DNA from: Solirubrobacterales bacterium
Lineage (GTDB): Bacteria > Actinomycetota > Thermoleophilia > Solirubrobacterales > 70-9
NCBI GenBank assembly: GCA_020438395.1
Contig: JAGQUR010000012.1
Coordinates: 10,837-74,836 of the forward strand
Length of the DNA stretch: 64,000 nucleotides
Direction: 5' to 3'
Shown: piece by piece, positions 7,848 to 57,621 of the stretch
Position numbering within the stretch: the stretch's first letter is position 1
Layout: each line of letters opens with the position of its first letter
The notes under the pieces: generated by a model
The model's database searches: none
What the model was told of the DNA's origin: nothing
What the model saw: the letters and a program-made list of their open reading frames with translations, nothing else
Position numbers and translations under genes: made by a program

Positions 7848-7893
7848 GCCCGGCCCGAACCGGGCGAGGAATCTGCCCCCGGCTACAGGACTT

Positions 7894-10437: not shown

Positions 10438-10439
10438 GA

Positions 10440-31618: not shown

Positions 31619-31714
31619 AAAGAACGTGACGCCGCAAGCAATGCAATGCTCACGTGAAATCTCAGTTGCGAACCGGCCAGAATGCCAGCGCCAGACGCGA
31701 TGTAGACTTGTGCC

Positions 31715-41956: not shown

Positions 41957-44556
41957 CTACGGTCTCCTTCGACCCTGAGAGGAACGTAGCCAGCAGAGTC
42001 CGCCGGCTCGAGTTCGGCGGTGTCAGCGACCTGACCTGTTTTCCTGACGGCACGCAGCGCGTCGAGGATGCGGTCGTCCAGCGTCTCCAGATGGGCGAGC
42101 GCCTCGGTTGGTGTTCTGGTTTCGACGGCTCCCTGGATTGGCTTCGGGACCCCTGGACCGAACAGATCCTGGATGCTGATGCCGCCGAGAGCGAATGGTT
42201 CACTCGCATTGCCGCGATCAGTGACTTGAGCGATGAACCTGTATCTGGGAAGCCGCGTCAGCGCGGCCGGATCAGGTCGGCCTCCCCACTCCCTGGTGAT
42301 GAGGTTGGCTGCCTTGGAGTTGAGTGCAGTCGCGATCAGGTGCGAGCGGTTCGTGGTGAGCGCCTGCAGCGTCGCGGAGGTGAGGCGTTCCGGGTTCTGG
42401 TTGAGCAGCACCGCCCGGATGCCGTACTTCGCGCTTTGTTCGAGCAACGCGGCGAGGTTGCCCGAGACGGCACCGTCATAGGTTTGGACCTCGTCGAGAA
42501 ACACCCAGAACGGCCGACGCTCAGACGGTGGGACGTTGGCTCTGGTCTTGGCTGCGTGGAGGAGATCGAAGACGATGAGGTTGGCAAGCAGACGGTCCCG
42601 CGTACCGCCGGAGCCTGGACATGCAAGGACGATCTGACCGCGGTCCATCGCTTCCCTGATCCGGTAGCTGCTCCGGCTCGCTCCGAGCAAAGTCGTGACT
42701 GCGGCCGAGGCACGGAGCCGGTCGACCATGTTGGTCAGCGGCGTGATCGCTTCCTCGGCGAGCCGGGGAAATCGATCCATCCAAAAGCGCTGGGCGGCTC
42801 TCGGCATGAACGGCAGCGTTGCCTTCCGCCAAGTGGAGTCCGACAGCAACGTCGGGAGTTGGAAGATTGTCGGGCAAAGCTCGGCGGGCAGCGCCCGGGA
42901 GATCGCAGTGAGCGCCATCGCCGACTGCGCCGTCAGGTTGATCGCCCGGGTCGAGCGCTCCCCCCATTGAAGAGCCGAAGCGAACGCGTCGACCACCGCT
43001 TCGATCCTGCCTTCGGCCTCGCCTGCCTCGGGTCCGCCGAGTTCGAAGATGTTCCAGCCGGGCTGCTGCTCGCTCGCGCCCGGGCCGAGGTCTATCTCAA
43101 CGATCCGGTCGCTCACGTTCGGGTCGGTGAGGTACGGCTTCATTCGCTCGATCGCGTCTTCGTGCGGATCGAGGAATAGACCACCCTGACCGGACCGCAC
43201 GAGGTGGAGGAACTGGCAGATCGCAAGCTCGGTCTTGCCGAACCGGCTCCTTCCCGTCACGTACGTGAAGAAGGTGTCGGCGGTGCGGACGCCGGCAATC
43301 CGCTCCCCTTCTTCTGCCGAGGTTCGTCCGATCGGAATCAGGTCCGGTTCGTCTCCCAGGGCAGGTAGATCTGGGGGCGGCGAGAGCATCGCGCCGGAGC
43401 GAAGAACGTTCTCGTCTGAGAGGTAGATCGTTGGTGGTTTCAGGAAACCCGCGATCTCTCGGGCGGCGACGATGTTGCGCCGGGCGGGCCGGAAGAGGCC
43501 GGTGTTGACGCGCCGGTCGAAGCGCCTGCGACGGCCCGGAAGATCGGAGCCAAGGAACGCTAGACCAGGGATCGGGACACCGGAGGCTCTGAGCCAGTTT
43601 CTGTCGCCGAGAGATTCGAACGCGGCGAGCAGGTTCGTCATAGTTGCGCTCGCACGAACCCGGCTCTCGGCCCGGGTACGGATCAGGATCTGGGCTTCGA
43701 AGATCGCTCCGCCATCTCGGAGCTTGGCATCGAGGCCGCGGCCGAGCCCTCGTCGCTCGGCCAACGTCGCCGGGTCGCTTCGCCTCGGCTTCGAGTTCAA
43801 CCCGAGACGCTCAGAGATCCCCACCTGGTCGATGCCGAGGCGACGCACCTGTCGGGCGAGGTGTCGTGTCAGCCTGGCCCGACGGTGACCGGCCGCGGGA
43901 AGTAGATCGATGTGGACGCTCGCATGCTCGCCGGGCTGAAGACCGGCCATCGCCGCCGCAAATGGTTGGAGCGGATCGGGGTCCAGCTCCAGGCGCGCCA
44001 AGGGCTCCACGCTCGGGCGGGCCAGCACCAACTCGGTCCGCATCGTCACCCCCGTACCGGCCTGCCGCGCGGGCCGCACTTCATCGGCCCGACGAATCTC
44101 GATTCCTTCGTAGGCCCGAAGGGTTGACCGGACCAGGTCCATCTGATCCTCGCGGGATTCGATCAGGTAGACGACCCTTCCCTCCGGGTCAGAGTCGAGG
44201 GTGAACCTGATCGCCGACGCTCTGCGGCACATCCAGCCACGCACGGCACGATCTGATCGCGAGAGTTGAGCAGCAGCCCGGAGAACGGTCTCGATGCTGA
44301 CCTCGAACTCGTCGGCTGGCACCACCGCCACGGCCCGGCGGGAGCCGAGAGCGCGGCGGGTAGATAGGAAGCGTTGTGTAGCCAGCGCCGAGGCGAGACC
44401 GATAGATCCGATAGCGACCGGAGCCAGCGACTTGATGATCGAGAAAGCCTGGTCCGGCTCGACGTTCGAGAGTGCCCGCCACGCGGCAAGGCAGAGAGCA
44501 CCCGCGAGGATGGAGAGCATCAGGGTCGGGTCGGACCGGCGACGATCAGATTTCAT
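41953..44556 (-). CDS. Type IV secretion coupling protein (TraG/TraD/VirD4-like ATPase)
   Basis: Two N-terminal TM helices, Walker A GRSRFGKT and Walker B FWVFLDEVQ are present. The protein is 867 aa. Confidence 0.75.
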   Translation of the reverse strand: MKSDRRRSDPTLMLSILAGALCLAAWRALSNVEPDQAFSIIKSLAPVAIGSIGLASALATQRFLSTRRALGSRRAVAVVPADEFEVSIETVLRAAAQLSRSDRAVRGWMCRRASAIRFTLDSDPEGRVVYLIESREDQMDLVRSTLRAYEGIEIRRADEVRPARQAGTGVTMRTELVLARPSVEPLARLELDPDPLQPFAAAMAGLQPGEHASVHIDLLPAAGHRRARLTRHLARQVRRLGIDQVGISERLGLNSKPRRSDPATLAERRGLGRGLDAKLRDGGAIFEAQILIRTRAESRVRASATMTNLLAAFESLGDRNWLRASGVPIPGLAFLGSDLPGRRRRFDRRVNTGLFRPARRNIVAAREIAGFLKPPTIYLSDENVLRSGAMLSPPPDLPALGDEPDLIPIGRTSAEEGERIAGVRTADTFFTYVTGRSRFGKTELAICQFLHLVRSGQGGLFLDPHEDAIERMKPYLTDPNVSDRIVEIDLGPGASEQQPGWNIFELGGPEAGEAEGRIEAVVDAFASALQWGERSTRAINLTAQSAMALTAISRALPAELCPTIFQLPTLLSDSTWRKATLPFMPRAAQRFWMDRFPRLAEEAITPLTNMVDRLRASAAVTTLLGASRSSYRIREAMDRGQIVLACPGSGGTRDRLLANLIVFDLLHAAKTRANVPPSERRPFWVFLDEVQTYDGAVSGNLAALLEQSAKYGIRAVLLNQNPERLTSATLQALTTNRSHLIATALNSKAANLITREWGGRPDPAALTRLPRYRFIAQVTDRGNASEPFALGGISIQDLFGPGVPKPIQGAVETRTPTEALAHLETLDDRILDALRAVRKTGQVADTAELEPADSAGYVPLRVEGDRR

Positions 44557-44732
44557 GGTCCGACCTCCCGGGGACGGAGAGATGTCGGCAAATCAAAGAT
44601 TCGGGATTCCCCGTCCGGCCGCCATTTCTTGGGGGTTGCGGCTGGTGTGGGTGCGAAGGGACGGGCGAAGGGACAGCCGAAGCGGCAAACGAACCCGAGA
44701 GCGACCCAGTGGACGGTGTTGACGAGGTTCAT
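44553..44732 (-). CDS. Small coupled ORF (59 aa), hypothetical
   Basis: The ATG overlaps the upstream stop (ATGA) and the stop overlaps the T4CP start (ATGA). It is below the ORF-track length cutoff as an independent start. Confidence 0.3.
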   Translation of the reverse strand: MNLVNTVHWVALGFVCRFGCPFARPFAPTPAATPKKWRPDGESRIFDLPTSLRPREVGP

Positions 44733-45946
44733 CGGCGTCCCTTTCCGGCGAGAACCTCGATCCAGGTGGCTGGCCGATACGCGTAGAGGGAGGTGTTCTC
44801 CGGCATGCCCGGCGAGGCTGAGGTCTGCCACGAAATGTGGATGTGCGGGCCGCCCGTGCACGGCACGCAGTGCGCCGGATCGCCGTGCGAGGGATATCCG
44901 TTGTAGCCCGTGAATCTGAAGGGTGGATCGGCGCAGTCGGGCCTGACGCCTGAGGCCGCGCAGCCTGGGTTCCATCCGACCGCGCGGGCCAGACGCATCG
45001 TGTTGGCCCAGTTCCCGTCCTTCGGGGCCGCGTCGATCGCGGCCCCGACGGGATGCTCCCCATCTGGGGTGTGGCCAAGGCCGAAGCAGTCGGTTACTAC
45101 CTGCCCGAATCGGCGGGCCAGGTATATGACGTCGGCGACGATCCGCGAGTCGCAGGACTCCGGCGTGCCGGGTGTTATGTCGGCGGGCAAAGCCTTCAGG
45201 CGTGCCGGTCCCGTGACCCTACGGGCACCACCGAGACCGCCCGAAGTCGCTGGCGCCCCGCAACCACCCGGCACCGATCCCGTCGCTGGAACCGCACCGG
45301 CCGGGTCGGAGGGCTTGGGGCTTCCGGCTCCGTGGAAGCCGTACTGGACGGCGCGGGCCATCACCTCGTCGGCGTAGGAGACGATCCCGTCGTCGCAAGC
45401 ACCGTAGTAGCGGCAAGCAGCCTCACGGTAGGCGGCGAACGAACCTCCGGTCCTCGGCGCCCCCATCACGGGGCGAAGGATCCTCGCGCCGGTAAAGATC
45501 GAGTCGGCGAGACTGGTGATGCTGGCAGTCCCGTCGCCGTCGGCGTCTACGCCGTAGCGTTCCCAGAGGGTGGGCACCGACGGATCGGGGCTGCAGGCGC
45601 TGCCTCGGACCACGGCGATCTGCATCGCGCCGCCGCACCCGGAAGGGTTGATCTCGGCACAGGTTCCGTTGCCGCACTCCTGGTAGCCGATCGCGGCCAG
45701 GAAAGTCCAGTCGACATCGAACCGCTTGGCGGCCGCCCGGTAGAGCCGGAGCTTCCTCGGCGAGATCTCCTGCTTGGCAGTCTTGGTCGGAGCGGCCTGC
45801 GCGGCGCCACCTCCTCCGACGCAGCCGACGTCGGCGCCGAGGACCGCCATGAAAACTCCGGTCAACGCGACCACGGTGAACGCGAGTCCCGCGAGTACGC
45901 CGAGCGCCCACACCGGCCGCGAGCGATGGTTCGACCCGCCGGCCAT
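44729..45946 (-). CDS. Conjugation-associated cell-wall hydrolase (lytic transglycosylase-like N-domain plus Cys/His-rich C-domain)
   Basis: A TM anchor is followed by WTFLAAIGYQECGNG...GAMQ (SLT-like). The C-terminal DGEHPVGAAIDA...GGPHIHISW is peptidase-like (H..D...H). The start at ATG 45946 overlaps the upstream stop by 1 nt. Confidence 0.65.
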   Translation of the reverse strand: MAGGSNHRSRPVWALGVLAGLAFTVVALTGVFMAVLGADVGCVGGGGAAQAAPTKTAKQEISPRKLRLYRAAAKRFDVDWTFLAAIGYQECGNGTCAEINPSGCGGAMQIAVVRGSACSPDPSVPTLWERYGVDADGDGTASITSLADSIFTGARILRPVMGAPRTGGSFAAYREAACRYYGACDDGIVSYADEVMARAVQYGFHGAGSPKPSDPAGAVPATGSVPGGCGAPATSGGLGGARRVTGPARLKALPADITPGTPESCDSRIVADVIYLARRFGQVVTDCFGLGHTPDGEHPVGAAIDAAPKDGNWANTMRLARAVGWNPGCAASGVRPDCADPPFRFTGYNGYPSHGDPAHCVPCTGGPHIHISWQTSASPGMPENTSLYAYRPATWIEVLAGKGRR

Positions 45947-46455
45947 CACTCGGCCCCCACCCTCTCGACCAGCCACCGCCCCCGCACGAGAGCCACCTCA
46001 AGGATCACCGGGTAGGCGATCCGGCCAGCCTCGACCGTCGCGGTCACGACCCCGCCACGAGTCGAGATCTGCCCTGCCTGAACTTCGAACAGGCGCTGCT
46101 TCTCATGCCGCGCGGCCGGCGAGACTCGCATCTGCCGGCCGAGCCTGGCGATCAGGGCCGGTGCCGCCGAGTTGACCTGGTCCAGGCTGGCTCGGCCGGA
46201 GGCGAGGTCGAGGTATCCGACCATGAACCGGCGAGCGGTCAACTCGGCGGCTCGCTCGAGTTGGTCGTCCCGGCTTGGTTTGGCCGCAACGGTCTCGACC
46301 CTCCCGGCACCCGATCGTGGTTGATCCGGGTCGGGGCTCGGGATCGCCATCAACACGGCGGCGGTCGTGATGAGCAACACCGCGACCATCGCGAACACGA
46401 CGAGGCCTTGCTCGGCCGGGATCGGCCGCGCCCAGATATCACCGAAGCGTCTCAC
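45946..46455 (-). CDS. Single-pass membrane protein of the transfer operon
   Basis: GTG 46455 overlaps the upstream stop as GTGA. The TM segment is GLVVFAMVAVLLITTAAVLMAI. Confidence 0.45.
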   Translation of the reverse strand: MRRFGDIWARPIPAEQGLVVFAMVAVLLITTAAVLMAIPSPDPDQPRSGAGRVETVAAKPSRDDQLERAAELTARRFMVGYLDLASGRASLDQVNSAAPALIARLGRQMRVSPAARHEKQRLFEVQAGQISTRGGVVTATVEAGRIAYPVILEVALVRGRWLVERVGAE

Positions 46456-48068
46456 CGGCCCCTCCTCGATGGGAACCGCCTGGAGCCCCGTCCCACGGTG
46501 CGCTCGATCCCACGAAGCGCAGTTGATCTCCTTAGGTATGCGAGCAGCTGGGCGCTCGCATCTCTGGGTGCGTGTTCGCCGCCGGTGACACCGATGAGGC
46601 GGCTGGTCAACTGTCGGCGTTGCAAGAACACCATCCAGTTGAAAAGACCTTGCAGCCCAAACGACATGAGCCACCCGAGTTGCGAGGTAGTGGACGCCAA
46701 CGCACCGTTGACGGCCAACAAGATCGCGAGGATCAGCGAGTACGCGGCCTTCCGAACCAAAAGGCCAGCCAGCTTGGCTAGCCAGCCCCGGAAGAAGTCG
46801 TGGCCTCGTCCGGGGATGACGGCGACAACGAGGACGACGGGCGCGAATGCGAGGAGCAGCAGGAGCAGGATCTGCGCGAAGATCACCCCGATCGAGAGAG
46901 CTCCGATCAGCAAGAACACGCCGAGTTCACCCGTGAAGATCACGATCGCCACGAGCAGCCGTTGGTACTGACCGCCCTCCTCCATCGCGTCGGTCGCCGG
47001 TTTGTCGGCAATGCCGAGCCGGTAGTTGCCGCGATCGGCGGAAGGGTCGGAGTCCGGAAGCTTCTCGGTGTCGCCCGAGTTCAGGGCGTCGTACTGGGCG
47101 TTGCGTTCGTCGGACCCGGTCGGGTGCGACAGGAAGTGTGGCGCGTACTTGTTGAGGTTGTTGATGCAGGTCTTGCCGTCGGCTTCGACCTGGCTGCCGC
47201 GCCGGAGCGCCCGGCTGAGGGCGGCGTCCTTGCCCGAGTCTTTGGACAGCGGCCGGACCGGCACCGACTCCGGATCGGAGTCATCGGACCCGGTACCTGA
47301 TTTTGCGCAGTGTTCGATCCCACCGAACTGGAGTACCGCCCAAGGCTCTTGGATCAGCAGCTTGAAGAGTTGATCGGCCCCGGAGAGCTTCGCGTCGTCT
47401 GCCTGCCCGACAGATCCCTTGCCGGTGATCGACAAGAACGCCCCGGACATTTGATTGGTCCAGCTGGATGCCGAACCGATCGTGGCGGTCGGTTGAGCGA
47501 CGAACGCGAGCGCGACGATCAGATAGATCAAAGAGACCGCGAGCGTCCCGGCTGTCTCGGCGTAGCGACGTTGGATCAATGCTCGCCACATCGCCCACAT
47601 GCCGACCACGACCACCGCGAGCACGAGCCAGGGCCGGCCGAACACCTGCGAGTAGATCGTGTGTATCGCGGTCGAGACGGGACGAAGCGCTCCCGCACCG
47701 CCGGTTGCTTCTGACCCGTTGAGGAGATCCAGCGAGAACGCGAACGTGAAAAGGGAGATCAGCGCCCGGGCCAAGAACGCGGTCAACTCCCAGATCACGC
47801 TGGCGAGGAAGTAGGCGATCATCGGCGGCACCCCGGAGACGTCGACCCCGCCGGTGAGGGACGCTTCGACGGCTTTGAAGTGCTGGTCGAGGGTGTAGTT
47901 GCCCGCCGGGTACTGCTCGCTGAGCGCCCCGCCGGAGATCTGCGGGGCCGGGCCGACGTTGCCGAACATGTCCGATGCTCCGGCCAACGGATGAGCCAGG
48001 AAGATCAGTGCGGCAGCCAGCACGACCGCGAGGATCACGTACCTAGCTTTCGGTAGCCGGGCCTTCAC
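46452..48068 (-). CDS. Polytopic membrane protein (VirB6/TrbL-like role)
   Basis: At least 6 hydrophobic helices are present. GTG 48068 overlaps the VirB4-like stop as GTGA. Confidence 0.55.
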   Translation of the reverse strand: MKARLPKARYVILAVVLAAALIFLAHPLAGASDMFGNVGPAPQISGGALSEQYPAGNYTLDQHFKAVEASLTGGVDVSGVPPMIAYFLASVIWELTAFLARALISLFTFAFSLDLLNGSEATGGAGALRPVSTAIHTIYSQVFGRPWLVLAVVVVGMWAMWRALIQRRYAETAGTLAVSLIYLIVALAFVAQPTATIGSASSWTNQMSGAFLSITGKGSVGQADDAKLSGADQLFKLLIQEPWAVLQFGGIEHCAKSGTGSDDSDPESVPVRPLSKDSGKDAALSRALRRGSQVEADGKTCINNLNKYAPHFLSHPTGSDERNAQYDALNSGDTEKLPDSDPSADRGNYRLGIADKPATDAMEEGGQYQRLLVAIVIFTGELGVFLLIGALSIGVIFAQILLLLLLAFAPVVLVVAVIPGRGHDFFRGWLAKLAGLLVRKAAYSLILAILLAVNGALASTTSQLGWLMSFGLQGLFNWMVFLQRRQLTSRLIGVTGGEHAPRDASAQLLAYLRRSTALRGIERTVGRGSRRFPSRRGR

Positions 48069-49969
48069 TTTTCCGCCTCCCGCCTGGGCGTCGTATCGAG
48101 CGCTTTGAGCAGGGCGTCGGAGGCGAGATCGACTTGAAGCTCCCCCACCCGGCCTTTGAGGTCGCGCATCAGGCAACGGCCTTTACGGAATCCTTTGAGT
48201 GAGTGGATGAGGGTGTCGTCGTCCGGGTCGAGCCCAATCAGGCGGAGTGCCCGACTGGTCTCCACATCGGATTCCTGCCCGAACAGGAAGTAGGTGCCCA
48301 CCAGCTCGGAGAGATCCCCGAGGTCCGCGAGCCGCTGGCTCGCCAACAGGACGGTGGTGTTGGCGGAGCGCCCGAGCCGGACCAGCCGGTTGAGGAGCAT
48401 CCGGCCTTGGGTGGAGGCGAGGAGGAACCACGCCTCGTCGAGCAGGACGACTTTGTGGCGGCTGCGGTCGCCAGAGACCAGCCGGAGTGCGAGTGCCGCA
48501 ATCAGCGAGAGGGTGGCGACGGAGATTCGCTCGGCTCGGGTGTAGGTCTCGCGGGAGGCGCCGGGGTCGGGCAGGCTGAGACCGGGTGTTCGGATCGTAG
48601 TGACCGCGCTTTTGGCCGAGCCCGGTTCGGCGTTGGCTTCGTTGCCGAAGCCGAGGCGGGCCAAGCCAAAGTCGGCGATCACCTCCAGCGCGTCGCCGAC
48701 CTCGTTGGCGGTGGTGTCGTCGGCGGCTTTCAGCCGGGCGATAACCGCGCCGAGGTTGTGTTCGCTGGCACGAATCGCGTCACGAACGGCCCTCTGCACC
48801 TGGTTCTCCCAAGCCGGCGGCGGATCGCGCAAAAGCTCCAGCAGGTACGACGAAGCCAGTTCTTCGCGCAGCTCGGGTAGACCGATTGCCATCGGATCGA
48901 GTCGGCCCCGGTTCGTCTCGTCCCCGGAGAGTTCCAGGACCTCGACCGATCCGGTCAGCTCGGGTATTTGGTCGAGAGCGTGGTCTGGCTTCGGGTCGAA
49001 ATCGACCACCAGCGATCCGCGGCGCTCTGCCGCGTAGGCGATGGCCTGAGCGGTGAGCGTCTTGCCTGAGCCGAGAGTTCCCGCGAGCAGGACCGCGGAG
49101 GCGCGGGAGGTGCGGGACGCCTCCGTCGGGTCGTACCTCACCGGGCGGCCGCCACCGGTTGGTGAGGTGCCAATGTATGTGCCGGTGTCGGAGCCGAGAT
49201 CAGTGGACGCGGTGACGACCATTGCTCCGAACTGCTCGACGGTCATCTGCTGCTCGTAGTCGGCCACCTCCGACCCGACCCGAGGCAGATGCTCAAGGAA
49301 GAGCCGGTGCTGAAGTCCGCGCGGACGGTGAAGCGGCACGTCCCCGAACCGCTCGGTAAGAGCGTCCACGCGTCGCTCCAGCTCCTGCCGGTCCGTGGCA
49401 CCTACGGCGAACGAGACCGACGTTTTGAGCATCGGCGGATGCGAGGTGCCCTGCAAGATCGCTTCGTACTCGCGGGCCAGCTCGCGGTCTTCGCCCGCCA
49501 GGAACCCGGGACCACTGATCGAGCCTTGTTCCTGCTCCTGGTAGGCGTGCTCAACGTCGAGGATGCGTTTCCTGACCTGGGCCAACGCGTCGCGGTTGCC
49601 GATCCAGTGGACATGAATCACGGCGTCGACCGGAAACCCGACCGCCTCCACGGGCGCGAACAAAAGCTCGGCATCACCAGGAAAGACCGCCTCCGACGCG
49701 AGCGCCCCGATACAAAGAAACGCCTGATAGCCGATGCCGCACTCGGCCTCCACCATCAGCGAGGCAGGCTCGGCCGGGTCCTCGACCATCGGCTCGTTCA
49801 CACACCGGATCAGGTCATGCGCCAGCGGCTCGTATGCGGTCGAGCCGTCCGGAGTCTCGATCACCAACGCGTCCGGCTCCCAGTTGACGTCAAGGGCGGG
49901 TTCACTCGTCCCGCGGGTCGCGCCGCGCCTGAGCAGCCATTGAATCTCCGAGGTCGTGGCCCGCCTCAT
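48065..49969 (-). CDS. VirB4/TraC-like conjugative transfer ATPase
   Basis: Walker A LLAGTLGSGKT and Walker B VVLLDEAWFLL are present. The protein is 634 aa. Confidence 0.85.
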   Translation of the reverse strand: MRRATTSEIQWLLRRGATRGTSEPALDVNWEPDALVIETPDGSTAYEPLAHDLIRCVNEPMVEDPAEPASLMVEAECGIGYQAFLCIGALASEAVFPGDAELLFAPVEAVGFPVDAVIHVHWIGNRDALAQVRKRILDVEHAYQEQEQGSISGPGFLAGEDRELAREYEAILQGTSHPPMLKTSVSFAVGATDRQELERRVDALTERFGDVPLHRPRGLQHRLFLEHLPRVGSEVADYEQQMTVEQFGAMVVTASTDLGSDTGTYIGTSPTGGGRPVRYDPTEASRTSRASAVLLAGTLGSGKTLTAQAIAYAAERRGSLVVDFDPKPDHALDQIPELTGSVEVLELSGDETNRGRLDPMAIGLPELREELASSYLLELLRDPPPAWENQVQRAVRDAIRASEHNLGAVIARLKAADDTTANEVGDALEVIADFGLARLGFGNEANAEPGSAKSAVTTIRTPGLSLPDPGASRETYTRAERISVATLSLIAALALRLVSGDRSRHKVVLLDEAWFLLASTQGRMLLNRLVRLGRSANTTVLLASQRLADLGDLSELVGTYFLFGQESDVETSRALRLIGLDPDDDTLIHSLKGFRKGRCLMRDLKGRVGELQVDLASDALLKALDTTPRREAEK

Positions 49970-50499
49970 TGCGCGAGCACTCCTCTCAGCCGGTCGTGGA
50001 CGCGCCTTTCCGACTCGACCAACTTTTCGAGATCGCTACCGGAGATCGGGCGGGGCGAATCCACCCGGAACAACTCCTCCAACCTCCTGCGAGCACGATC
50101 GAACGAGGAAACGACCCCTTGTCCCACCGCCGACTCGCCCGAAGTGGTGAGCGTGACGGCCAAGTACACCTCCGGTAGATGCGATGCTGAAGCGGCAAGG
50201 CGATCCTGATGGTCTTGTAGGAACCGCCGCCAAGCCGACAGGTCCGAGTGACGCTCGTCCGCCGTCGCTTCCAGGTCCGCCACATACCTTTCGGCGGGAT
50301 AGGCGCGCTGGACCCGCCAGATCGAGAAGTCCGAGCCAACAACATGGGCGAAGCGAACTAGCCTCGCCGCCACCGCCTGCTTGTCCGGCACCGTCAGGAA
50401 CGGGTAGGCGGTCGTGTCCAGCCGGTAGAGAGCCGCGGCCTCGCCGGAAGGTCCGATCAGGATGTTCCCGAACACGTATCTGAGCGGGAACCGGATCAC
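49966..50499 (-). CDS. Transfer-operon protein (177 aa), hypothetical
   Basis: GTG 50499 overlaps the upstream stop. Its own stop overlaps the ATPase start as ATGA. Confidence 0.45.
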   Translation of the reverse strand: MIRFPLRYVFGNILIGPSGEAAALYRLDTTAYPFLTVPDKQAVAARLVRFAHVVGSDFSIWRVQRAYPAERYVADLEATADERHSDLSAWRRFLQDHQDRLAASASHLPEVYLAVTLTTSGESAVGQGVVSSFDRARRRLEELFRVDSPRPISGSDLEKLVESERRVHDRLRGVLAQ

Positions 50500-51197
50500 G
50501 GCCTGACCTCCAAGACCTCTCCGGCGGCCAAGGTCACCGACGAGGTGACCCCACCGCGACGGCGATGCCACCCGAGTCGACGAACGACCCGACGGCCCCG
50601 CCGCTTCTTGATCTCTTCGACCGGCACCTGGAAGGTAACCTCGGCCGGTCCCTTGATTCGGGCTCGGCGAAGAGTCGGCGCGTGCTCGTCCGACGCAACC
50701 CACGCCTCGCCGCACGACGAAATCGCCCGGCCTGCTGCGGGCAAAGCGCGGCCGAGAGAGCGGCGACGGGGTGCGAGTCGCAGAGTGAGCCACGAGAAGG
50801 CGAAGCTCTCGGCGCTTCTGCCGTCCGGGGTCCTCTGCGTCGCCAAGGTAGCTACCGCCGCCGGCAGGACGACGAGACGAAGCGGCCAGTCCAGCAGCTC
50901 GACCACAAAGCCTGCGATCTCGATCCCGACGAAGGCGGCTACGGCACCGCCGAGGGCGGTAGCCCGGCCGCCGACCATGAACCCGACCACGGCCGCGGCG
51001 ATCGCGCCGAGTAGGGCGACGGTCGTGGCTGCGGCCGAGACCAGGATCGAGGCAACGAGCGTCGCGGCGGCGTAGCCGAGCCAGCGGAGCGGCACCCCGC
51101 CCGGCACGGGGAGAGGTTTGCCGTCGATCGAGTAGATCCGCCGATCCGGGGTGAAGACGCGCTGGTAGGAGCGCACAGATTCACGCTGGCCGGTCAC
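50496..51197 (-). CDS. TcpE-like conjugal transfer membrane protein
   Basis: The N-terminal YQRVFTPDRRIYSIDGKPLPVPGGVPL motif is followed by two long TM hairpins (TcpE family pattern, recalled). Confidence 0.5.
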   Translation of the reverse strand: MTGQRESVRSYQRVFTPDRRIYSIDGKPLPVPGGVPLRWLGYAAATLVASILVSAAATTVALLGAIAAAVVGFMVGGRATALGGAVAAFVGIEIAGFVVELLDWPLRLVVLPAAVATLATQRTPDGRSAESFAFSWLTLRLAPRRRSLGRALPAAGRAISSCGEAWVASDEHAPTLRRARIKGPAEVTFQVPVEEIKKRRGRRVVRRLGWHRRRGGVTSSVTLAAGEVLEVRP

Positions 51198-51505
51198 GGC
51201 AGGATCTGATCCCCGATGCCGCGAGCAGCGTCAGCGACCTGATCGGCCGAGAACACCAGCCACGCCACCAAAATCGCCGCCAAGAAGAACATGGCGAGGT
51301 CGGTGTAGCGGCGGTTCAACAGGAAGATCAGACCGACGATCGCGATGATCCCGCCGTAGATCTGGGCGGCATAGTGACGCAGCAGCGACCCGATGTTCTG
51401 ACCGACATCGTTTCCGCCGGCCGCGGCGGACGCATCGGGCAAGAGCCAGAGTACGAGCGCCAGGAGAGCGAGCAGCGTGGCTGTCACAGCGATCTGGCGT
51501 TTCAT
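51194..51505 (-). CDS. Small membrane protein (pilin/VirB2-like position)
   Basis: A signal-like N-terminus and two TM helices are present. The protein is 103 aa, with ATGA overlaps at both ends. Confidence 0.45.
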   Translation of the reverse strand: MKRQIAVTATLLALLALVLWLLPDASAAAGGNDVGQNIGSLLRHYAAQIYGGIIAIVGLIFLLNRRYTDLAMFFLAAILVAWLVFSADQVADAARGIGDQILP

Positions 51506-52308
51506 CGGCTCGTCCCCTGAACTCCGGCGACGAACCAGCGTTGACGCCTGACCAACTCCAACCTGTACCGGAGTGGATAAACCACGCCGGTCGCCTGGTC
51601 TTTCAGGCGCACCCGAGCGGTGACCGTCCTCTGGGTCTCGCCGTCGTCCAGCTGTGCGACATCCGGCTCACCAACGAGATCGAACCCGCCGAGCGGCGTC
51701 ACCTCTGATCCGGGCGCCACAAAATAGACGAGATCAGCCGGCCGTCCGGTCGACGCGTAGGCGTCAATGAACCGGATGACGAGCTTCGCGATCTCTTCGG
51801 CATCAACGCCCGAAACTGGCGATCCGCGCTCCGGCTCGAATGCCGACCCCACCGAGCCCGCCACCAGATACGGCGCACCGAGCACGGTGATCTCGCCCGC
51901 TTCCTGACGGATCGGGATGGCGAGGTTTCTCAAATGCCCGGTGGTCAGCTCGCAGGCGACCGTGACCACAGACTCGCTTGGAACTACGGGCCTGGAGCCC
52001 ACGACTTCGGCTTGGGCCACGCCCGGTTCCAAGTGCTTGTTGTCGGTGCCGGGCTTGCCGTGGCGGGCGACTCCGCGCGGATCGGCGAAATAGTCGCGGG
52101 CGAAGTGAACCGCGAACGCCGCGACAGGGCCATCGACACGCTGATCTGCCCCTTCGCCCTCCGTTGGGCTGATGTCGTCGGGTGGGGAGATGATCGCCCC
52201 GAGCCCACGCAAGAGCAAGAGAGCGACCAGCGCCCAGAGGGCGAGGCGGCCCACGGCACGAGCCCTGGGACCGACACCCCGCACCCGGTCGGATACATCG
52301 ACACTCAC
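51502..52308 (-). CDS. Membrane-anchored transfer protein (TcpC-like position)
   Basis: An N-terminal TM (LALWALVALLLLRGLGAII) and a soluble domain are present. The start is GTG. Confidence 0.45.
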   Translation of the reverse strand: MSVDVSDRVRGVGPRARAVGRLALWALVALLLLRGLGAIISPPDDISPTEGEGADQRVDGPVAAFAVHFARDYFADPRGVARHGKPGTDNKHLEPGVAQAEVVGSRPVVPSESVVTVACELTTGHLRNLAIPIRQEAGEITVLGAPYLVAGSVGSAFEPERGSPVSGVDAEEIAKLVIRFIDAYASTGRPADLVYFVAPGSEVTPLGGFDLVGEPDVAQLDDGETQRTVTARVRLKDQATGVVYPLRYRLELVRRQRWFVAGVQGTSR

Positions 52309-52484
52309 AGCACACCTCCTTCAGGCCCGTCGCAACGAACGGACGCGAGCCGCCCCGACCTTGAGGGAAGGTCGAGGCAGCGACCGACCATCGGAAAGAG
52401 AGAACCGTGGTCGGGGGCGGGACGTTCGGTCCCGCACCAGGCGTCCGTGGTGCGCACGAGCCGTCTGTTTTCAAGTTGGTTCAT
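52305..52484 (-). CDS. Candidate leaderless small ORF (59 aa) opening the transfer operon
   Basis: The ATG lies 6 nt downstream of the CGACAA -10-like hexamer of promoter copy C. The stop overlaps GTG 52308 as GTGA. No homology was recognised. Confidence 0.3.
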   Translation of the reverse strand: MNQLENRRLVRTTDAWCGTERPAPDHGSLFPMVGRCLDLPSRSGRLASVRCDGPEGGVL

Positions 52485-52490
52485 ACCCCC

Positions 52491-52519
52491 TTGTCGGATC
52501 GGCACGGCGTTTGCGTCAC
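52491..52519 (-). promoter_or_regulatory. Promoter-like motif copy C: GTGACGcaaacg-N11-CGACAA facing the transfer operon
   Basis: The minus strand reads GTGACGCAAACGCCGTGCCGATCCGACAA. The two hexamers are separated by 17 nt. Confidence 0.6.
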
Positions 52520-52542
52520 TGATTTAGCGATTCTGAAAAGTT

Positions 52543-52571
52543 TTGACGCAAACGGTGTTCTCATTCGACAA
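52543..52571 (+). promoter_or_regulatory. Promoter-like motif copy A: TTGACGcaaacg-N11-CGACAA upstream of the sigma-factor gene
   Basis: TTGACGCAAACGGTGTTCTCATTCGACAA, with a 17-nt spacer. Confidence 0.6.
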
Positions 52572-52621
52572 AGAAGTGAGATGGTGCGTTCTGAACACCC
52601 CGATTCCCACCCGAACAGCGT

Positions 52622-53848
52622 TTGCCGAACCTCCCGTTCGGGAACCCAGAAACCATGTCGGTCGTGGCGGTCCATATGAGATGGGCGTTGGACACCGATC
52701 AGCTCAAGAGCATTGAGATCGGATTGCGGGGAAAGCTGCGCTCCACGCAGATCCCGGAGGCGTTCATCGAACGCAATCTCGAAGACCTCCTCCAACAAGC
52801 CGTCGCCGAGTACGCCAACGTCCGCGAGCGCGGCATCAAAGTCGTAAACCCGGGCGGTTGGATCGTCCACTCCGCTCACCTACGAGCGATCGATCAACTC
52901 CGCCACGAACAACACGAGGTCGAAGGGACCACCGAAGACGTAGCGGCCAACATGGCCGACGAGACGACACCGCTCCCTGATGAAGAAGCGCTCGGACACA
53001 TAGAGGCTGAGCAGCTTCACCGGGCGATCTCCCGACTATCGACCTCCCAAAGGCAGGCTCTCAGCCTCTATTACTTCGAGGATAAGTCAACCCGCGACGG
53101 TGCCGACGCGCTCGGTTGGAGCGAACCAACCTTCAGAAGAAGACGCGACGCAGCGATAGAGAGCCTCCGGGAACGCCTTGGCGTAACCGTGCCCGAGTTC
53201 GACGTCGGGCTCGCCGCATGGCTCAGTCTCACCGTCTCCGAGAGTCGCTTCGCCTGGGCCACCAGCAACATCGGCGGCACGATCGAGACGATCCGGTCCG
53301 GCGCCGTTGCGGTTGCGGATCGAACGCGAGAGTTCGCGACAAGGCTTCTCTCGTCCGGAGGAGGAGAGACCGCGATCGGGATCGGCAGCCCAGCCAGCAA
53401 GGCGGCCGCCGGGGTTTGCGCGACCGCCCTCGCGGCATGCACGGCAACCGGAGTGATCGGACCCGGAGTGGCCGGCGTAGATCTCATCGACCACAACACC
53501 AAGCCGAAACCATCCGTCGAAAAACGAGTCGTACCCACCGGGCAAGGACCGAACCGACCGCCCGCCACCTCGACCGCATCCACGCCGAGCCAAGAATCCA
53601 GCCGCGCCAGCACTTCGCAAACGACCAAGCGGCAGAAAGCCAACGGGTCGAGCAAGAGCCAGGCAAGCTCTGAGCAGAAGAGGACTCTGCAGGCCCGCCA
53701 TAACGCCAGCTCACAGTTCGGTGTCGAATCAAGCGCATCCACAACCCCGGCCGGAGGCGCGCCCACCACAACGAGTCCACCCCCGAGCGCTTCGGCGCCT
53801 TCACCTAGCCCCGATCAAGCCGCACAAGAACAGTTCGGGCTTCCCTGA
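52622..53848 (+). CDS. Sigma-70 family (ECF-like) sigma factor with ~200-aa C-terminal extension
   Basis: The region-2-like segment is NPGGWIVHSAHLRAIDQLRHE. The region-4 HTH is LSTSQRQALSLYYFEDKSTRDGADALGWSEPTFRRRRDAAIESLRERL. A hydrophobic stretch and a Ser/Thr/Pro-rich tail follow. The start is ambiguous (TTG 52622 or ATG 52655). Confidence 0.7.
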   Translation: MPNLPFGNPETMSVVAVHMRWALDTDQLKSIEIGLRGKLRSTQIPEAFIERNLEDLLQQAVAEYANVRERGIKVVNPGGWIVHSAHLRAIDQLRHEQHEVEGTTEDVAANMADETTPLPDEEALGHIEAEQLHRAISRLSTSQRQALSLYYFEDKSTRDGADALGWSEPTFRRRRDAAIESLRERLGVTVPEFDVGLAAWLSLTVSESRFAWATSNIGGTIETIRSGAVAVADRTREFATRLLSSGGGETAIGIGSPASKAAAGVCATALAACTATGVIGPGVAGVDLIDHNTKPKPSVEKRVVPTGQGPNRPPATSTASTPSQESSRASTSQTTKRQKANGSSKSQASSEQKRTLQARHNASSQFGVESSASTTPAGGAPTTTSPPPSASAPSPSPDQAAQEQFGLP

Positions 53849-53860
53849 TTCCTCAAATTT

Positions 53861-53889
53861 GTGACGCAAACGGCCGCCTCATCCGACAA
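53861..53889 (+). promoter_or_regulatory. Promoter-like motif copy B: GTGACGcaaacg-N11-CGACAA upstream of the secreted-protein pair
   Basis: GTGACGCAAACGGCCGCCTCATCCGACAA, with a 17-nt spacer. Confidence 0.6.
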
Positions 53890-53963
53890 AGAGATAGAGG
53901 CGCCGCCGTACGCGCCGACGTGCCTTGGCTTGTTTCAGCGCGAATTGGGTAGGTGAATACAAA

Positions 53964-55538
53964 ATGAAAAAGGGTCTTGGAAGCAAACTCGCCAGGATGG
54001 CGGGCACCGGGGCCGTAGCTCTGGTGACGTTGATCCTGATTGGAACACCAGCGAAAGCCGGCGACTATGTCGTGGCGCAGTGCGCGCCGGGCTTGAACGC
54101 CAGCACTGAAGCTCGTTTCTCATCTTCGAGCAACCACTTCAAGGGGATACAAGAATGTGGGCGAAACTCACCGGGAGTCCAGGTCCGTCATCAACTCGCA
54201 GCGGGTGAGACCGGCACGGTCCATCGGCGATTTGGCGCATGGGTCTGGACGGCGCCGCCCGGCACCGTGATAAGCGGCGGTTCAGCACGTAGCCGGCTTG
54301 AGAATGCAAACGGTGTATCCGGCTATCTCGTTGTTTCCCCGGATACCGGCAATAGCGCGGTTACGGAAAACCAAAACGACGGAAACCAGCACCTCTCTGC
54401 CATTCCCGCCGGCAGGTGGCGGTACTTCGTCGCCAGGCTTGAATGCACCTCACCAACTCAAGGGGGCCGTTGCGTAGGGGCCGCGGCCAATGCTCATACC
54501 TATGTCAAGCAGGTTCGCCTTCGGCTGACCGACCTGGCCGCGCCCGTACTTGGCGTCGGAGGGTCCCTGCTCGAAAGTGGTACCAGCCGCGGATGGCAAA
54601 CCATCAGTTTGCTCGCATCCGATCAAGGCGCCGGCATCAAGTCCACAAGGGTCACGGTCAACGGCGTCCAGGCAGCCGGTGAAGACCTCGGCATCTCCTG
54701 TCACCCGCTACCCGGCGGTTTGACGTCCAGCTTGTCGCCCTGCCCGAAAGCGATCGGCAAGGTCTATTCGCTCGATACCGCTGCGCGGCCGTTCAGGCAT
54801 GGCAACAACAAGGTCGAGGTCTGCGTCAGCGACTATGCACAGATAGGGACACCCAACTTCGATTGCGAATCTCGGCAGGTCTTGGTGGACAGTCTTTGCC
54901 CGGCCTCATCGGCCGGGGGAGGCAAGAAGCTCAGGGCTCGGTTCACCAGATCCGGCAAGCGATTCTCGCGCCAAAAGATCGGTACCCCGACGATCATCCG
55001 GGGACGCATCGGCGACGGCCACGGCAACCCAATCGTCGGCGCTCAGGTCTGCATTCAAGCCCACACGGATCTTCGCGGCAAGAAGTTCAAACTGCTCGCG
55101 ACCACAGCAACGAACTCTGACGGCCACTTCACCTACAAGCTCAAACGCGGAGCCTCTAAGAAAATCCGCGTCGTCTACCGGGATGGCACTTTCCAGATCT
55201 CCCGTAGCCTCCGTCTCAAGGTCAAGGGAACTTCGACCCTTCATGTGAGCAAGCATCGAACTCGACCGTTGAAGCGGGTCGGATTCTTCGGGAAGATCCC
55301 CGGCCCCCACGCTGCCGGCCGTGTGGTGGTCGTCTACGGCACCGTGCCCGGGGCCAAGAAGAGGTTTCTAGTTCGCCGAGCGAAGACAAACTCAGTCGGC
55401 CGTTGGCGGGCGGGCTACTCATTTACGCCGGTTCCGGCCAGGACGAGGTTCGTATTCTGGGCGGTCGTCCCGAACCAGAACGGGTATCCGTACACCCAAG
55501 GGCGCTCGGCCGCCCGATACATACGAGTAAGGCCATAG
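53964..55538 (+). CDS. Secreted hypothetical protein (524 aa) with basic C-terminal beta-rich domains
   Basis: ATG 53964 gives MKKGLGSKLARMAGTGAVALVTLILIGTPAKA (signal peptide). The CarboxypepD_reg-like segment IIRGRIGDGHGNPIVGAQVCIQ is present, and the tail is Arg/Lys-rich. Confidence 0.6.
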   Translation: MKKGLGSKLARMAGTGAVALVTLILIGTPAKAGDYVVAQCAPGLNASTEARFSSSSNHFKGIQECGRNSPGVQVRHQLAAGETGTVHRRFGAWVWTAPPGTVISGGSARSRLENANGVSGYLVVSPDTGNSAVTENQNDGNQHLSAIPAGRWRYFVARLECTSPTQGGRCVGAAANAHTYVKQVRLRLTDLAAPVLGVGGSLLESGTSRGWQTISLLASDQGAGIKSTRVTVNGVQAAGEDLGISCHPLPGGLTSSLSPCPKAIGKVYSLDTAARPFRHGNNKVEVCVSDYAQIGTPNFDCESRQVLVDSLCPASSAGGGKKLRARFTRSGKRFSRQKIGTPTIIRGRIGDGHGNPIVGAQVCIQAHTDLRGKKFKLLATTATNSDGHFTYKLKRGASKKIRVVYRDGTFQISRSLRLKVKGTSTLHVSKHRTRPLKRVGFFGKIPGPHAAGRVVVVYGTVPGAKKRFLVRRAKTNSVGRWRAGYSFTPVPARTRFVFWAVVPNQNGYPYTQGRSAARYIRVRP

Positions 55539-55571
55539 ACCAATGGCTGAGTCTCGATCCGAGGAGGAGCA

Positions 55572-56006
55572 ATGAGGAAGCAACGCCGCATCCCGTCGCC
55601 AGCGACCCTTATCGCCATCATGGCGTTGTTCGTCGCATTGGGCGGCACCGCCTATGGTGTCACCCGAAATAGCATCGGCACCCACCAGATCAAACCGCAC
55701 GCGGTCCAAGCGAAGAACCTCGGGCCGATGAAACTCAGATGGGGCAAGGTTCGAGACTTCGACAACACCGCGGGCGACGGTCAGTTCAACATCGCCTCCG
55801 GCCAGGCCCAATGCCGCCGCGGCGAACGACTCATAAGCGGTGGCGTCAGGGCACGCCAAAGCCCCGACTCTGGGCCGCTGCGAATGGCAATGATTGACTC
55901 CGGACCGGTCACGCGAAAACGCCAATGGTTCGTGACCATGCATTCCGATCTCGGAGGAGCGGCCCGAAAGCAGTTCGTCGTGTTTGCTTACTGCCTGCTC
56001 AGGTAG
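55572..56006 (+). CDS. Small secreted/anchored hypothetical protein (144 aa)
   Basis: GAGGAGG lies 5 nt upstream of the ATG. The N-terminal TM/signal is ATLIAIMALFVALGGTAYG. Confidence 0.5.
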   Translation: MRKQRRIPSPATLIAIMALFVALGGTAYGVTRNSIGTHQIKPHAVQAKNLGPMKLRWGKVRDFDNTAGDGQFNIASGQAQCRRGERLISGGVRARQSPDSGPLRMAMIDSGPVTRKRQWFVTMHSDLGGAARKQFVVFAYCLLR

Positions 56007-56011
56007 GCACC

Positions 56012-56031
56012 GGAACCCCGATGCGGGTTCC
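56012..56031 (+). terminator. Hairpin GGAACCC-CGATGC-GGGTTCC
   Basis: A perfect 7-bp stem lies 6 nt after the stop at 56006. There is no T-tract. Confidence 0.4.
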
Positions 56032-56154
56032 AGACGTCCAATTGGTTCGGTCGCATCAAGCTCGGTTTCGCCGAGACGCGTCATGCCGCTCCGCTTCCGT
56101 GCGATCAGCATAGTATATGATTATTCAGATATCGGATTTAGAGGATGTGACCCA

Positions 56155-57621
56155 ATGGAACCCAAACACGACCCGAAGGTGACGCGAACGACGCCCGCGG
56201 AACGCGCGCTGCGCGGGAACTCCGCGCTTGGCCACGCCGGGCCAGAGGGGGGCGAGCCCGTCGGCCGCGATTACGACCTGGTGGTGATCGGCTCCGGGGG
56301 CGGCGCTTTCGCCGGCGCGATCCGGGCACGCGACCTCGGCCGACGGGTGCTGATGGTCGATCGCGGCACGATCGGCGGCACTTGCGTGAATTTCGGCTGC
56401 ATCCCATCCAAGGCCCTGCTGGTCCGTTCGGAGCAAGCGCGGCTCGCGGGAGCGCCTAGCTTGGGTGAGGCACTGGCGGCGAAGGACGAGTTGGTCGCGC
56501 GGTTGCGCCAGGCCAAGTACTCCGATCTGCTGGAGGAGTACGGGATCGAGTTCCGCACGGGCGAGGCTCGCCTGCTCGGCCCGCACACGGTCGCCGTCGG
56601 CGGCGAGACGGTGGGCGCCGCGGCGATCCTTCTCGCCGCTGGCGCCCGCCCGAGGGTCCCGCCGATCACCGGGCTGGCGGAGGCCGGATACCTGACCTCC
56701 ACCAGTGCCCTCGAGCTCACCGAGGCGCCGTGGCGGCTGGCGGTGATCGGCGCCGGTCCGGTCGGCCTCGAACTCGGCCAGATGCTCGGCAACTTCGGAT
56801 CCGAGGTGACGTTCATCGCCCGGCGAGGGGTGGCCCCCGAAGCCGAGCCCGAGATCTCGGCGGCACTCCGCGAGGTGCTCGTAGCCGATGGGCACCGGGT
56901 CCTCGCCCCCGCCAACACGACCGAGGTCGGGGTTGAGAACGGGAAGAAGGTCCTGCGCGGCACGACAGCCGGCGAGCCGTTCGAGCTGGCGGTCGACGAG
57001 ATCCTCGTCGCGACTGGACGAACCGCCAACACGGAGGGACTCGGCCTCAAGCAGCTCGGAGTGGAGGTCGATGCCGCGGGCGCGATCGTCGTCGACGCCG
57101 AGCAGCGGACCACCGTCCCCTCGATCTACGCTGCCGGTGACGTCACCTCGCAGCCGCGCTTCGTCTACGTGGCGGCTGCAGGCGGCACGGCCGCCGCGGA
57201 GAACGCGCTCGGCTCCGGCGGCGAGAGGCTCGACTTCGCGGCGCTCCCTCAGATCGTTTTCACCCGCCCGGCGATCGCGCAGGCTGGCCTGACCGAGGCA
57301 GAGGCGCGCGAGCGCGGTGTCGAGGTCGAGACCACTGTCCTCCCCCTCGACGCGATCCCCCGTGCCTTGGTTAGCGGCGACGTCCACGGCCTGTTCAAGC
57401 TCGTCGCCGAGGCCAGCAGCGGCAGGCTTATCGGTGCCAGCATCCTCGCCGCCGGCGCCCCCGACGTGATCCAGAGCGCCGTGCTCGCGATTGACCGCGA
57501 CATGACGGTCACTGAGCTGTCCCGCAGCTGGGCGCCCTACCTGGCGATGGCCGAAGGGCTGAAGCTCGCGGCGCAGACCTTCGAACGCGACGTGGCGAAG
57601 CTCTCCTGCTGCGCTGCCTAA
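56155..57621 (+). CDS. merA: Mercuric reductase, core form without NmerA domain
   Basis: The FAD motif VVIGSGGGAFAGA, the redox-active TIGGTCVNFGCIPSK and the C-terminal vicinal Cys pair ...KLSCCAA* are present. ATG 56155 lies within a longer ORF-track frame. Confidence 0.9.
   Translation: MEPKHDPKVTRTTPAERALRGNSALGHAGPEGGEPVGRDYDLVVIGSGGGAFAGAIRARDLGRRVLMVDRGTIGGTCVNFGCIPSKALLVRSEQARLAGAPSLGEALAAKDELVARLRQAKYSDLLEEYGIEFRTGEARLLGPHTVAVGGETVGAAAILLAAGARPRVPPITGLAEAGYLTSTSALELTEAPWRLAVIGAGPVGLELGQMLGNFGSEVTFIARRGVAPEAEPEISAALREVLVADGHRVLAPANTTEVGVENGKKVLRGTTAGEPFELAVDEILVATGRTANTEGLGLKQLGVEVDAAGAIVVDAEQRTTVPSIYAAGDVTSQPRFVYVAAAGGTAAAENALGSGGERLDFAALPQIVFTRPAIAQAGLTEAEARERGVEVETTVLPLDAIPRALVSGDVHGLFKLVAEASSGRLIGASILAAGAPDVIQSAVLAIDRDMTVTELSRSWAPYLAMAEGLKLAAQTFERDVAKLSCCAA

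Follow-up and report, generated by a model that had tools for sequence, protein, structure and literature searches.

An element-encoded ECF-type sigma factor is predicted to read its own promoter and that of a conjugation operon in Solirubrobacterales

What switches on the transfer of a conjugative element in a high-GC Gram-positive bacterium? To our knowledge, the regulation of conjugation in such bacteria other than Streptomyces is almost unknown. Sigma genes are routinely annotated on elements of the Tn916/Tn1549 type, and their promoters and regulons are undefined (PMC7438776). Here we analyse a 64,000-nt stretch of DNA from an uncultured, soil-type Solirubrobacterales bacterium (contig JAGQUR010000012.1; hereafter the window, in which position 1 is the first letter, the coordinates of related loci following the numbering of each locus). 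It carries what appears to be a conjugative element with a gene for a putative sigma factor of the extracytoplasmic function (ECF) type, surrounded by three near-identical promoter-like motifs. The question raised by this arrangement is which protein reads the motifs and which genes respond. An initial annotation, made from the DNA letters, proposed an autoregulated, element-specific sigma factor that switches on the transfer genes. Our analysis supports that proposal through the ECF identity of the protein, the type IV secretion system (T4SS) operon beside it, the conservation of the motif, its co-variation with the sigma factor and a fixed distance from motif to start codon. We put the probability that the element's ECF-type sigma factor reads three promoters of its own at about 0.8.

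The motif itself is well defined. Its three annotated copies lie exactly where they had been placed (Table 1), and the 28-nt pattern TGACGCAAACG-N11-CGACAA has three exact matches in the 64-kb window. Allowing up to three mismatches uncovers no further copy (chance expectation 0.13), none of 100 shuffles reached three copies, and the 11-mer on its own has no additional exact copy anywhere in the 64 kb. Reading the sequence confirms that eleven bases on the -35 side are identical in copies A, B and C. The spacing needs a small correction. The gap between the hexamers, given as 17 nt, holds when counted from TGACG to CGACAA and is 16 nt from the hexamer TGACGC; likewise copies A and C do stand back to back, at 23 nt between their 12-mers rather than the 24 nt first reported. 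All three copies are intergenic and each is oriented into a gene, with the targets that had been assigned to them: copy C (P_tra) faces the transfer operon, copy A (P_sig) the sigma gene and copy B (P_sec) a unit of two genes for secreted proteins.

Two ordinary explanations for these sites were rejected. A scan of positions 52200-54100 for promoters of the sigma-70 type (TTGACA/TATAAT) found no sites, which removes the housekeeping-promoter explanation, and an Rfam scan of the same region returned sub-threshold noise only, with no match, which removes a known RNA element. We also tried a different register of the motif, AAC-N-CGAC, as an ECF-like reading; its AAAC, at a distance of just 12 nt from the -10, is not kept in relatives, and this register was discarded. 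At most sites of the family the -35 is preceded, at 4-7 nt, by an A-rich tract (AAA, then T or G; 52520-52542 and 53853-53860 in the window), which could act as a UP-element-like contact.

A search of related elements, one of the checks that the initial annotation had suggested, shows that the motif is kept. We compared 19 genome loci (L001-L019) and four further contigs (L197-L200), all of them from Solirubrobacterales or other actinobacterial metagenome bins. In all members down to some 41% protein identity, the sigma gene, the T4SS operon and the 537-aa gene that opens the secreted-protein unit each have the site in front of them; in total, 22 related Solirubrobacterales loci show the motif ahead of these three units. 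Throughout L001-L009 and L197-L200 the half-sites TGACGC(A)/CGACAA and their spacing are invariant or nearly so, and the spacer sequence diverges. L001 and L003-L008 have an equivalent of P_tra at the same position, as do L010, L011 and L200 with variant half-sites, and each is followed 6 nt on by a start codon. Equivalents of P_sig lie 5' of the sigma gene in L001, L003-L009 and L197-L200, with clade-specific variants in L013, L014 and L016-L019; a sigma-gene site is present in at least 20 loci. Those of P_sec precede the 537-aa gene in L002, L005, L007-L009, L011 and L197-L200.

Changes in gene order are informative about what the sites belong to. Two loci, L004 and L006, carry an insertion of about 4 kb (7190-11100 and 4440-9090, respectively) between the sigma gene and the 537-aa gene, and the site has remained in front of the latter (L004 11103; L006 9093). 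The T4SS operon of L009 and L198 has moved downstream onto the same strand, where the site is found directly before the operon (L009 10295; L198 9429). By this comparison the sites follow genes, not positions. Beyond the family the motif is scarce: 61 unrelated ECF loci (598 kb) gave one weak match. A metagenome scan with the exact 17-base pattern returned 116 stretches; among the 80 retrieved, three were elements of the family (L093, L119, L129) and the others were single-copy matches on contigs of 32-71% GC, about chance level by a rough estimate, and the scan therefore neither supports nor refutes the specificity of the motif. Separately, in L013 (10663-10690, +) and L014 (7285-7312, +) a clade-specific variant of the site stands before a conserved gene that encodes about 105 aa (VALATFVKLQLL...). 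The window lacks this gene, which may be an additional member of the regulon.

The half-sites also change together with the element's own protein. In distant clades the half-site pairs are clade-specific, with the same spacing, two to five per locus and often back to back. They read CGATGC/GGACA(T/G) in L013 and L018, CGACGG/TGACAT in L014 and L019, TGGCGC/CGACAG in L016 and L017, CGGCGC/CGACAA in L200 and TGACGC/CGGAAG in L011. When every variant was scanned against every locus, the resulting matrix was strongly diagonal. Alignment pairs the sigma4 recognition helix with the -35 (WSEPTFRRRR with TGACGC, CGETT(F/L)RR with CGGCGC, WH(P/S)SKAQR with CGATGC, WHESKARRCH with CGACGG) and a segment of sigma2 with the -10 (RAIDxLR with CGACA(A/G), RRTxxxL with (G/T)GACAT). 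L011 has kept its sigma4 helix together with its -35 and has changed both sigma2 and the -10. Such domain-wise pairing is what would be expected of a sigma factor that reads these sites.

This co-variation bears directly on the possibility that the motif is a promoter read by an alternative sigma factor of the host, the element protein having some other target or role. Conjugative elements often use host sigma factors, as RpoS on ICEclc and sigma-H at phrI of ICEBs1 (PMC5812530, PMC6540685), and the link that we draw between protein and site is sequence-based, not direct. However, the half-sites shift clade by clade in step with the sigma4 helix and the sigma2 segment of the element protein; a copy of the motif always lies directly 5' of the element's sigma gene, a hallmark of ECF autoregulation; and in the 64-kb window and the loci examined the motif is seen only beside these elements. 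We regard a host-encoded reader as improbable; it would leave the co-variation with the element protein unexplained.

The length of the element protein, 408 aa in the initial annotation, is that of the maximal open reading frame (ORF), from TTG 52622, and has to be revised: the likely protein has 397 aa (or 390 aa). A 100%-identical database protein of 397 aa begins with ATG 52655; another possible start codon is ATG 52676. The protein matches TIGR02937, the generic ECF model of NCBIfam, at 56.5 bits against a cutoff of 42.9 (residues 53-186; profile positions 28-165 of 165; a span that takes in most of region 2 and reaches through region 4), and Sigma70_r4_2 of Pfam (E 4.8e-10); every named NCBIfam sigma subfamily scored far below its cutoff for the window protein. 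In an AlphaFold2 model based on an alignment of 41 family sequences, residues 10-90 reach a pLDDT above 90 and residues 110-175 are placed with moderate confidence. The top Foldseek matches of this model in the PDB are all ECF sigma factors (SigL, SigH, RpoE, AlgU), over some 175-183 aligned columns. Four relatives (P0018-P0021) carry a precomputed match to PF04542, the Pfam model of region 2, and since residues 10-90 are also modelled with confidence, region 2 of the window protein is taken as divergent, not absent. The profile match, the structural model and its Foldseek neighbours together argue that the protein is a divergent but genuine two-domain ECF-type sigma factor. Its whole architecture is shared by 90 homologues of about 390-430 aa; a tblastn search of a plasmid collection with the sigma protein gave no match.

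The protein could instead be a sigma-like activator that binds DNA and leaves the housekeeping sigma in its place, as discussed for regulators of the Tn916 Orf7/Orf8 type. The divergence of region 2, which falls below the Pfam threshold, leaves room for this view, as does the poor characterisation of the sigma-like regulators of Gram-positive conjugative transposons, for which no promoter consensus is defined (PMC7438776). Yet sigma2 and sigma4 are both present and modelled with confidence, and TIGR02937 is matched through to its last position. The 16-nt gap between the half-sites suits a holoenzyme whose sigma4 and sigma2 read both at once, and there is no housekeeping -10 for an activator to assist. 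We see only a slight chance that the protein works in this way.

Where would transcription from these sites begin? An ATG had been noted 6 nt after the -10-like hexamer of copy C, opening a 59-codon ORF; it is indeed found at 52484-52482 on the minus strand, and the TGA of the ORF overlaps the GTG of the next gene as GTGA. The transcription start normally lies seven nt from the end of the -10, and leaderless mRNAs are common in Actinobacteria. Transcription from P_tra is predicted to start at or beside the A of this ATG (52484, -); for P_sig and P_sec the predicted starts are 52577-52581 (+) and about 53895-53898 (+). In 11 loci (the window, L003-L008, L010, L011, L198 and L200) an ATG or GTG lies exactly 6 nt past the -10 of the transfer-operon site, and the gene that it opens differs by clade: a 59-63-aa protein in the window clade, a protein with a helix-turn-helix of the ArsR type in L007, L008, L198 and L200 (HTH_5 E 6.5e-11; L007 ~5450-5797, -; L198 9463-9804, +; L200 5418-5816, -) and a 184-aa protein in L011. 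The offset is fixed before at least three unrelated first genes. For L198 (9463) and L200 (5816) the codon at this offset is also the gene start called independently by the source databases. With the start codon standing at the normal distance of a transcription start, the transfer-operon transcripts are most simply read as leaderless.

On the other side, the transcript from P_sig would pass a 32-codon ORF upstream of the sigma start (Table 1). Most close relatives have an ATG at this 9-nt offset. L003-L006 have this ORF at the same offset and length and with the same ATGA junction; it has 25 codons and a TAATG overlap in L007 and L008, is fused in frame to the sigma gene in L197 and is absent from L200. 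It may couple translation of the sigma factor to near-leaderless translation of a leader peptide.

The geometry of the sites also helps to judge whether they could be operators for a conventional regulator, either the 59-aa or the ArsR-type protein, rather than promoters. Sites as well conserved as these could serve such a regulator, and an ArsR gene does lie directly 3' of the site in L007, L008, L198 and L200. But the bipartite site lacks symmetry, its gap of free sequence is always 16 nt, it invariably faces the gene and it stands at a fixed 6 or 9 nt from a start codon, the geometry of a promoter rather than of an operator bound by a dimer. The motif is present in the window clade, which has no ArsR gene; these intergenic regions hold no other candidate promoter, and the co-variation is with the sigma factor. 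We therefore consider an operator function very unlikely. Either first-gene product, of 59 aa or of the ArsR type, could still give the circuit feedback regulation.

Table 1. Coordinates of the predicted promoters, genes and gene units of the element in the window
Feature	Coordinates	Strand	Half-sites	Remarks
P_tra (copy C)	52491-52519	-	-35 TGACGC 52518-52513; -10 CGACAA 52496-52491	Transfer-operon site; exact motif
P_sig (copy A)	52543-52571	+	-35 (T)TGACGC 52543-52549; -10 CGACAA 52566-52571	Sigma-gene site; exact motif
P_sec (copy B)	53861-53889	+		Site for the two-gene secreted-protein unit; exact motif
Upstream ORF, 32 codons	52581-52679	+		Starts 9 nt past the -10 of P_sig; stop overlaps ATG 52676 as ATGA (52676-52679)
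Predicted ECF-type sigma factor, 397 aa	52655-53848	+		sigma2-sigma4 at about residues 10-178; C-terminal extension 180-397
Two-gene unit after P_sec	53964-56006	+		524-aa (53964-55538) and 144-aa (55572-56006) proteins
First transfer-operon gene, 59-aa protein	52305-52484	-		Leaderless start predicted; 56-97% identity in L001, L003-L006
T4SS genes, Gram-positive type (MPF-FATA-like)	44729-52308	-		Pfam and NCBIfam matches
Coupling protein	41953-44556	-		TrwB_AAD_bind E 4e-5
Replic_Relax relaxase	41072-41956	-		Pfam E 1.2e-24
DNA methylase	40035-41075	-		Pfam
Tyrosine integrase	37960-39582	-		Phage_integrase E 6e-23

The genes behind P_tra identify the transfer operon. Following the 59-aa protein, which has no Pfam or NCBIfam match, the T4SS unit encodes TcpC (E 8e-13), a VirB2/TrbC-like protein of 103 aa, TcpE (E 8e-6, below the Pfam cutoff), a 275-aa protein, a VirB4-like AAA_10 ATPase (E 5.7e-58), a VirB6-like CD3337/EF1877 membrane protein (E 6.8e-34; 117.4 bits, just under the cutoff of 120) and proteins of 242 and 415 aa. 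These genes are syntenic in L001, L003-L009, L197, L198 and L200. Taken with the coupling protein, relaxase, methylase and integrase, their content marks an integrative conjugative element of the Gram-positive (Tcp/Tn916-like) type, carried by a genome of 65% GC. A tRNA scan for an integration site found no tRNA gene in the window. The transfer module is flanked on both sides by genes of the metal-resistance type (27363-29744, 36028-36678, 55984-57621 and 61180-63162), namely two P-type ATPases (one with an HMA domain), a DUF305 protein and a MerA-like pyridine-nucleotide-disulphide oxidoreductase; in L197 and L200, comparable cargo of a methyltransferase plus an ATPase lies 3' of the sigma trio. 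Left of the integrase are a Peptidase_M23 protein (30357-31601, -) and a Peptidase_M48-like protein (31654-33075, +), which could be a mating cell-wall hydrolase or a sigma-processing protease.

The unit behind P_sec is less easily named. Its first gene is a 537-aa ORF with a probable start at ATG 53964, which gives 524 aa, and its product has a weak CarboxypepD_reg/Ig-like domain (E 3e-6, below the Pfam cutoff); the 144-aa protein has no Pfam match. Both proteins have signal-peptide-like hydrophobic N-termini, judged by reading the sequence. The trio of sigma, 537-aa and 144-aa genes is kept in L001, L002, L005, L007-L009, L011, L013 and L197-L200.

The fold and family of the protein, the architecture and conservation of the promoters, their co-variation with the sigma factor and the fixed start-codon offsets are all established by computation. 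We infer that this sigma factor and not another reads the sites, that it feeds back positively on itself and what controls its activity. RNA polymerase with the element sigma would recognise the bipartite promoter (G/T)TGACGCA-N15-CGACAA. From P_sig it would transcribe the sigma gene itself, in positive autoregulation, the short upstream ORF near the 5' end of the transcript being translationally coupled to the sigma start. From P_tra, divergent from P_sig, it would make a leaderless mRNA running from the ATG of the 59-aa protein into the conjugation (T4SS) genes, and from P_sec it would express the two exported proteins. Once active, the sigma factor would amplify itself and turn on both the mating apparatus and the surface proteins.

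Several points weigh against this model. The half-sites TGACGC and CGACAA lack the AAC (-35) and CGT (-10) that are common in ECF promoters. In the window protein the Pfam model Sigma70_r2 (PF04542) stays below its gathering threshold (E 0.066; 13.5 bits against a cutoff of 24). The co-variation draws on about six clades, with residues paired to bases by eye rather than by a formal statistic of coupling. A sigma factor of the host, or a second factor encoded by the element and co-evolving with it, is a possible alternative reader. No copy of the motif was found before the coupling protein, relaxase or integrase genes; only the T4SS side carries a site, and to say that the sigma factor switches on transfer as a whole is therefore an extrapolation. 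Finally, the regulon model is entirely computational, and the organisms are uncultured.

If the sigma factor amplifies itself, what would hold it in check? Our best guess is the C-terminal half of the protein. It had been described as some 200 aa with a hydrophobic stretch and a tail rich in Ser, Thr and Pro (S/T/P); both are present, the stretch being rich in Gly and Ala and the tail following it. This extension (residues 180-397, about 210 aa; window 53192-53845, +) is conserved across the sigma family. Its conserved features are a near-invariant GLAAWLSL, the sequence RLLSSGGGE and the Gly/Ala-rich hydrophobic stretch with an invariant Cys, followed by a variable S/T/P linker and a tail with two short conserved QFG motifs, SQFGVES (about residue 345) and a terminal QFGLP. 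AlphaFold2 models both QFG motifs as short helices in otherwise disordered S/T/P-rich sequence; they matched no known motif or domain, and distant sigma relatives have EAEFG/QQFD variants at both positions. Pfam gave no match on the extension. An exhaustive search found the module in 56 representative clusters of 1.84 billion, always at the C-terminus of proteins of about 400 aa. We considered a stand-alone extension acting as a separate anti-sigma factor and rejected it: the shorter matches begin with the end of sigma4 and are truncated gene calls.

The proposal that the extension tethers the protein to the membrane held up only in part. The hydrophobic stretch is real, but its best 19-residue window (residues 250-268, AAAGVCATALAACTATGVI) has a marginal Kyte-Doolittle value of 1.75 and is given no helix by AlphaFold2 (pLDDT near 32), which makes it a marginal transmembrane candidate and speaks against membrane retention; tethering is plausible and weakly supported. 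A clue to the origin of the extension comes from relatives. The window protein has neither a zinc-finger motif (HxxxCxxC) nor a Pfam match after sigma4. Of the loci compared, only L016 and L017 carry such a motif, in an insertion of about 40 aa at this point (~6500-6630, +) that contains HLENCAAC, an instance of HxxxCxxC, and weakly matches zf-HC2 over its full length (E 0.026, below the cutoff). A fused anti-sigma domain that bound zinc, since lost in the window clade, may have been the source of the extension.

By analogy with other fused sigma factors, activity may be controlled by autoinhibition or membrane retention through the extension, relieved by proteolysis; we hold this tentatively, at somewhat less than even odds. 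A more elaborate version, which we think doubtful when all its parts are taken jointly, is a one-component conjugation switch in which the extension holds the sigma factor at the membrane, the tail senses a cue, proteolysis releases the sigma factor and leaderless positive feedback follows. The external S/T/P-rich tail with its two QFG motifs would then sense an extracellular cue, perhaps one involving the co-regulated 537-aa and 144-aa secreted proteins or recipient-cell contact. Intramembrane proteolysis would free the sigma factor, and the cell would be committed to assembly of the mating apparatus.

Fused ECF/anti-sigma proteins with membrane and proline-rich segments are known from Actinobacteria as ECF48, ECF52 (including SCO4117) and ECF53, and proteolytic removal of the fused extension has been proposed for these groups and shown for IutY (ECF243) (PMC8999054, PMC5826349). 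From their description in the literature, the window protein resembles them in having a sigma2-sigma4 core, a long fused extension, a hydrophobic segment and a distal part rich in Pro, Ser and Thr, and in its predicted positive autoregulation. Unlike them, it has no zinc finger (HxxxCxxC) and no carbohydrate-binding domain, and its extension is a distinct rare module with conserved motifs of its own. It also lies on a conjugative element, with a T4SS operon as its predicted regulon in place of stress or developmental genes of the chromosome. In the text of the ECF reclassification paper, conjugation terms and the names ECF48/52/53 were not found.

Sigma-type regulators on Gram-positive conjugative transposons are already known. 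On Tn916, Orf7 and Orf8 auto-activate Porf7 and hence xis, int and the transfer genes (PMC5812530, PMC12229494), and eight sigma genes of this kind occur on C. difficile transposons, with no promoter consensus identified (PMC7438776). Like Tn916 Orf7 and the sigma genes of the Tn916/Tn1549/Tn5397 family, the window gene encodes a sigma-type regulator on an element with a Tcp/Tn916-like T4SS (PMC7438776), and as with Orf7 the protein would activate its own promoter and thereby transfer functions, a likeness that is functional and taken from the literature only (PMC5812530, PMC12229494). In contrast to Tn916, which relies on read-through across the circularised junction to express its transfer genes, the window element has a dedicated divergent promoter directly before the T4SS operon. 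It also appears to lack an Orf8-type partner, encodes a protein of about 400 aa with a fused extension and resides in a high-GC host of the Thermoleophilia.

Canonical ECF modules (SigE/RseA, SigW/RsiW, SigK/RskA, SigL/RslA) offer a further comparison. They share with the window system a two-domain sigma factor, a bipartite promoter with a 16-17-nt gap before the sigma factor's own gene and a small dedicated regulon, and the best sequence and structure matches of the window protein are SigK, SigL and SigH of M. tuberculosis. The window system differs from them in having no separate anti-sigma gene adjoining and half-sites without the usual AAC and CGT cores. A literature search found no description of this combination of sigma factor, promoter and conjugation system. 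What is new is an ECF sigma factor with a distinct fused extension on a conjugative element of the Thermoleophilia, together with a fully definable promoter, a predicted three-unit regulon that includes the T4SS operon, putative leaderless starts and natural variants of specificity.

For the biology of these elements, sequence alone yields a complete testable circuit: a sigma factor, a promoter logo, three transcription units, starts predicted to the nucleotide and specificity variants. The natural variants pair residues of sigma4 and sigma2 with bases of the -35 and -10, and offer new orthogonal sigma/promoter pairs. With resistance to mercury and heavy metals among its cargo, the element is one whose transfer control matters ecologically, and what switches such elements on becomes directly testable in a heterologous host. 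A one-component switch, if true, would represent a logic of conjugation undescribed in any model element, along with a naturally orthogonal set of sigma factors and promoters.

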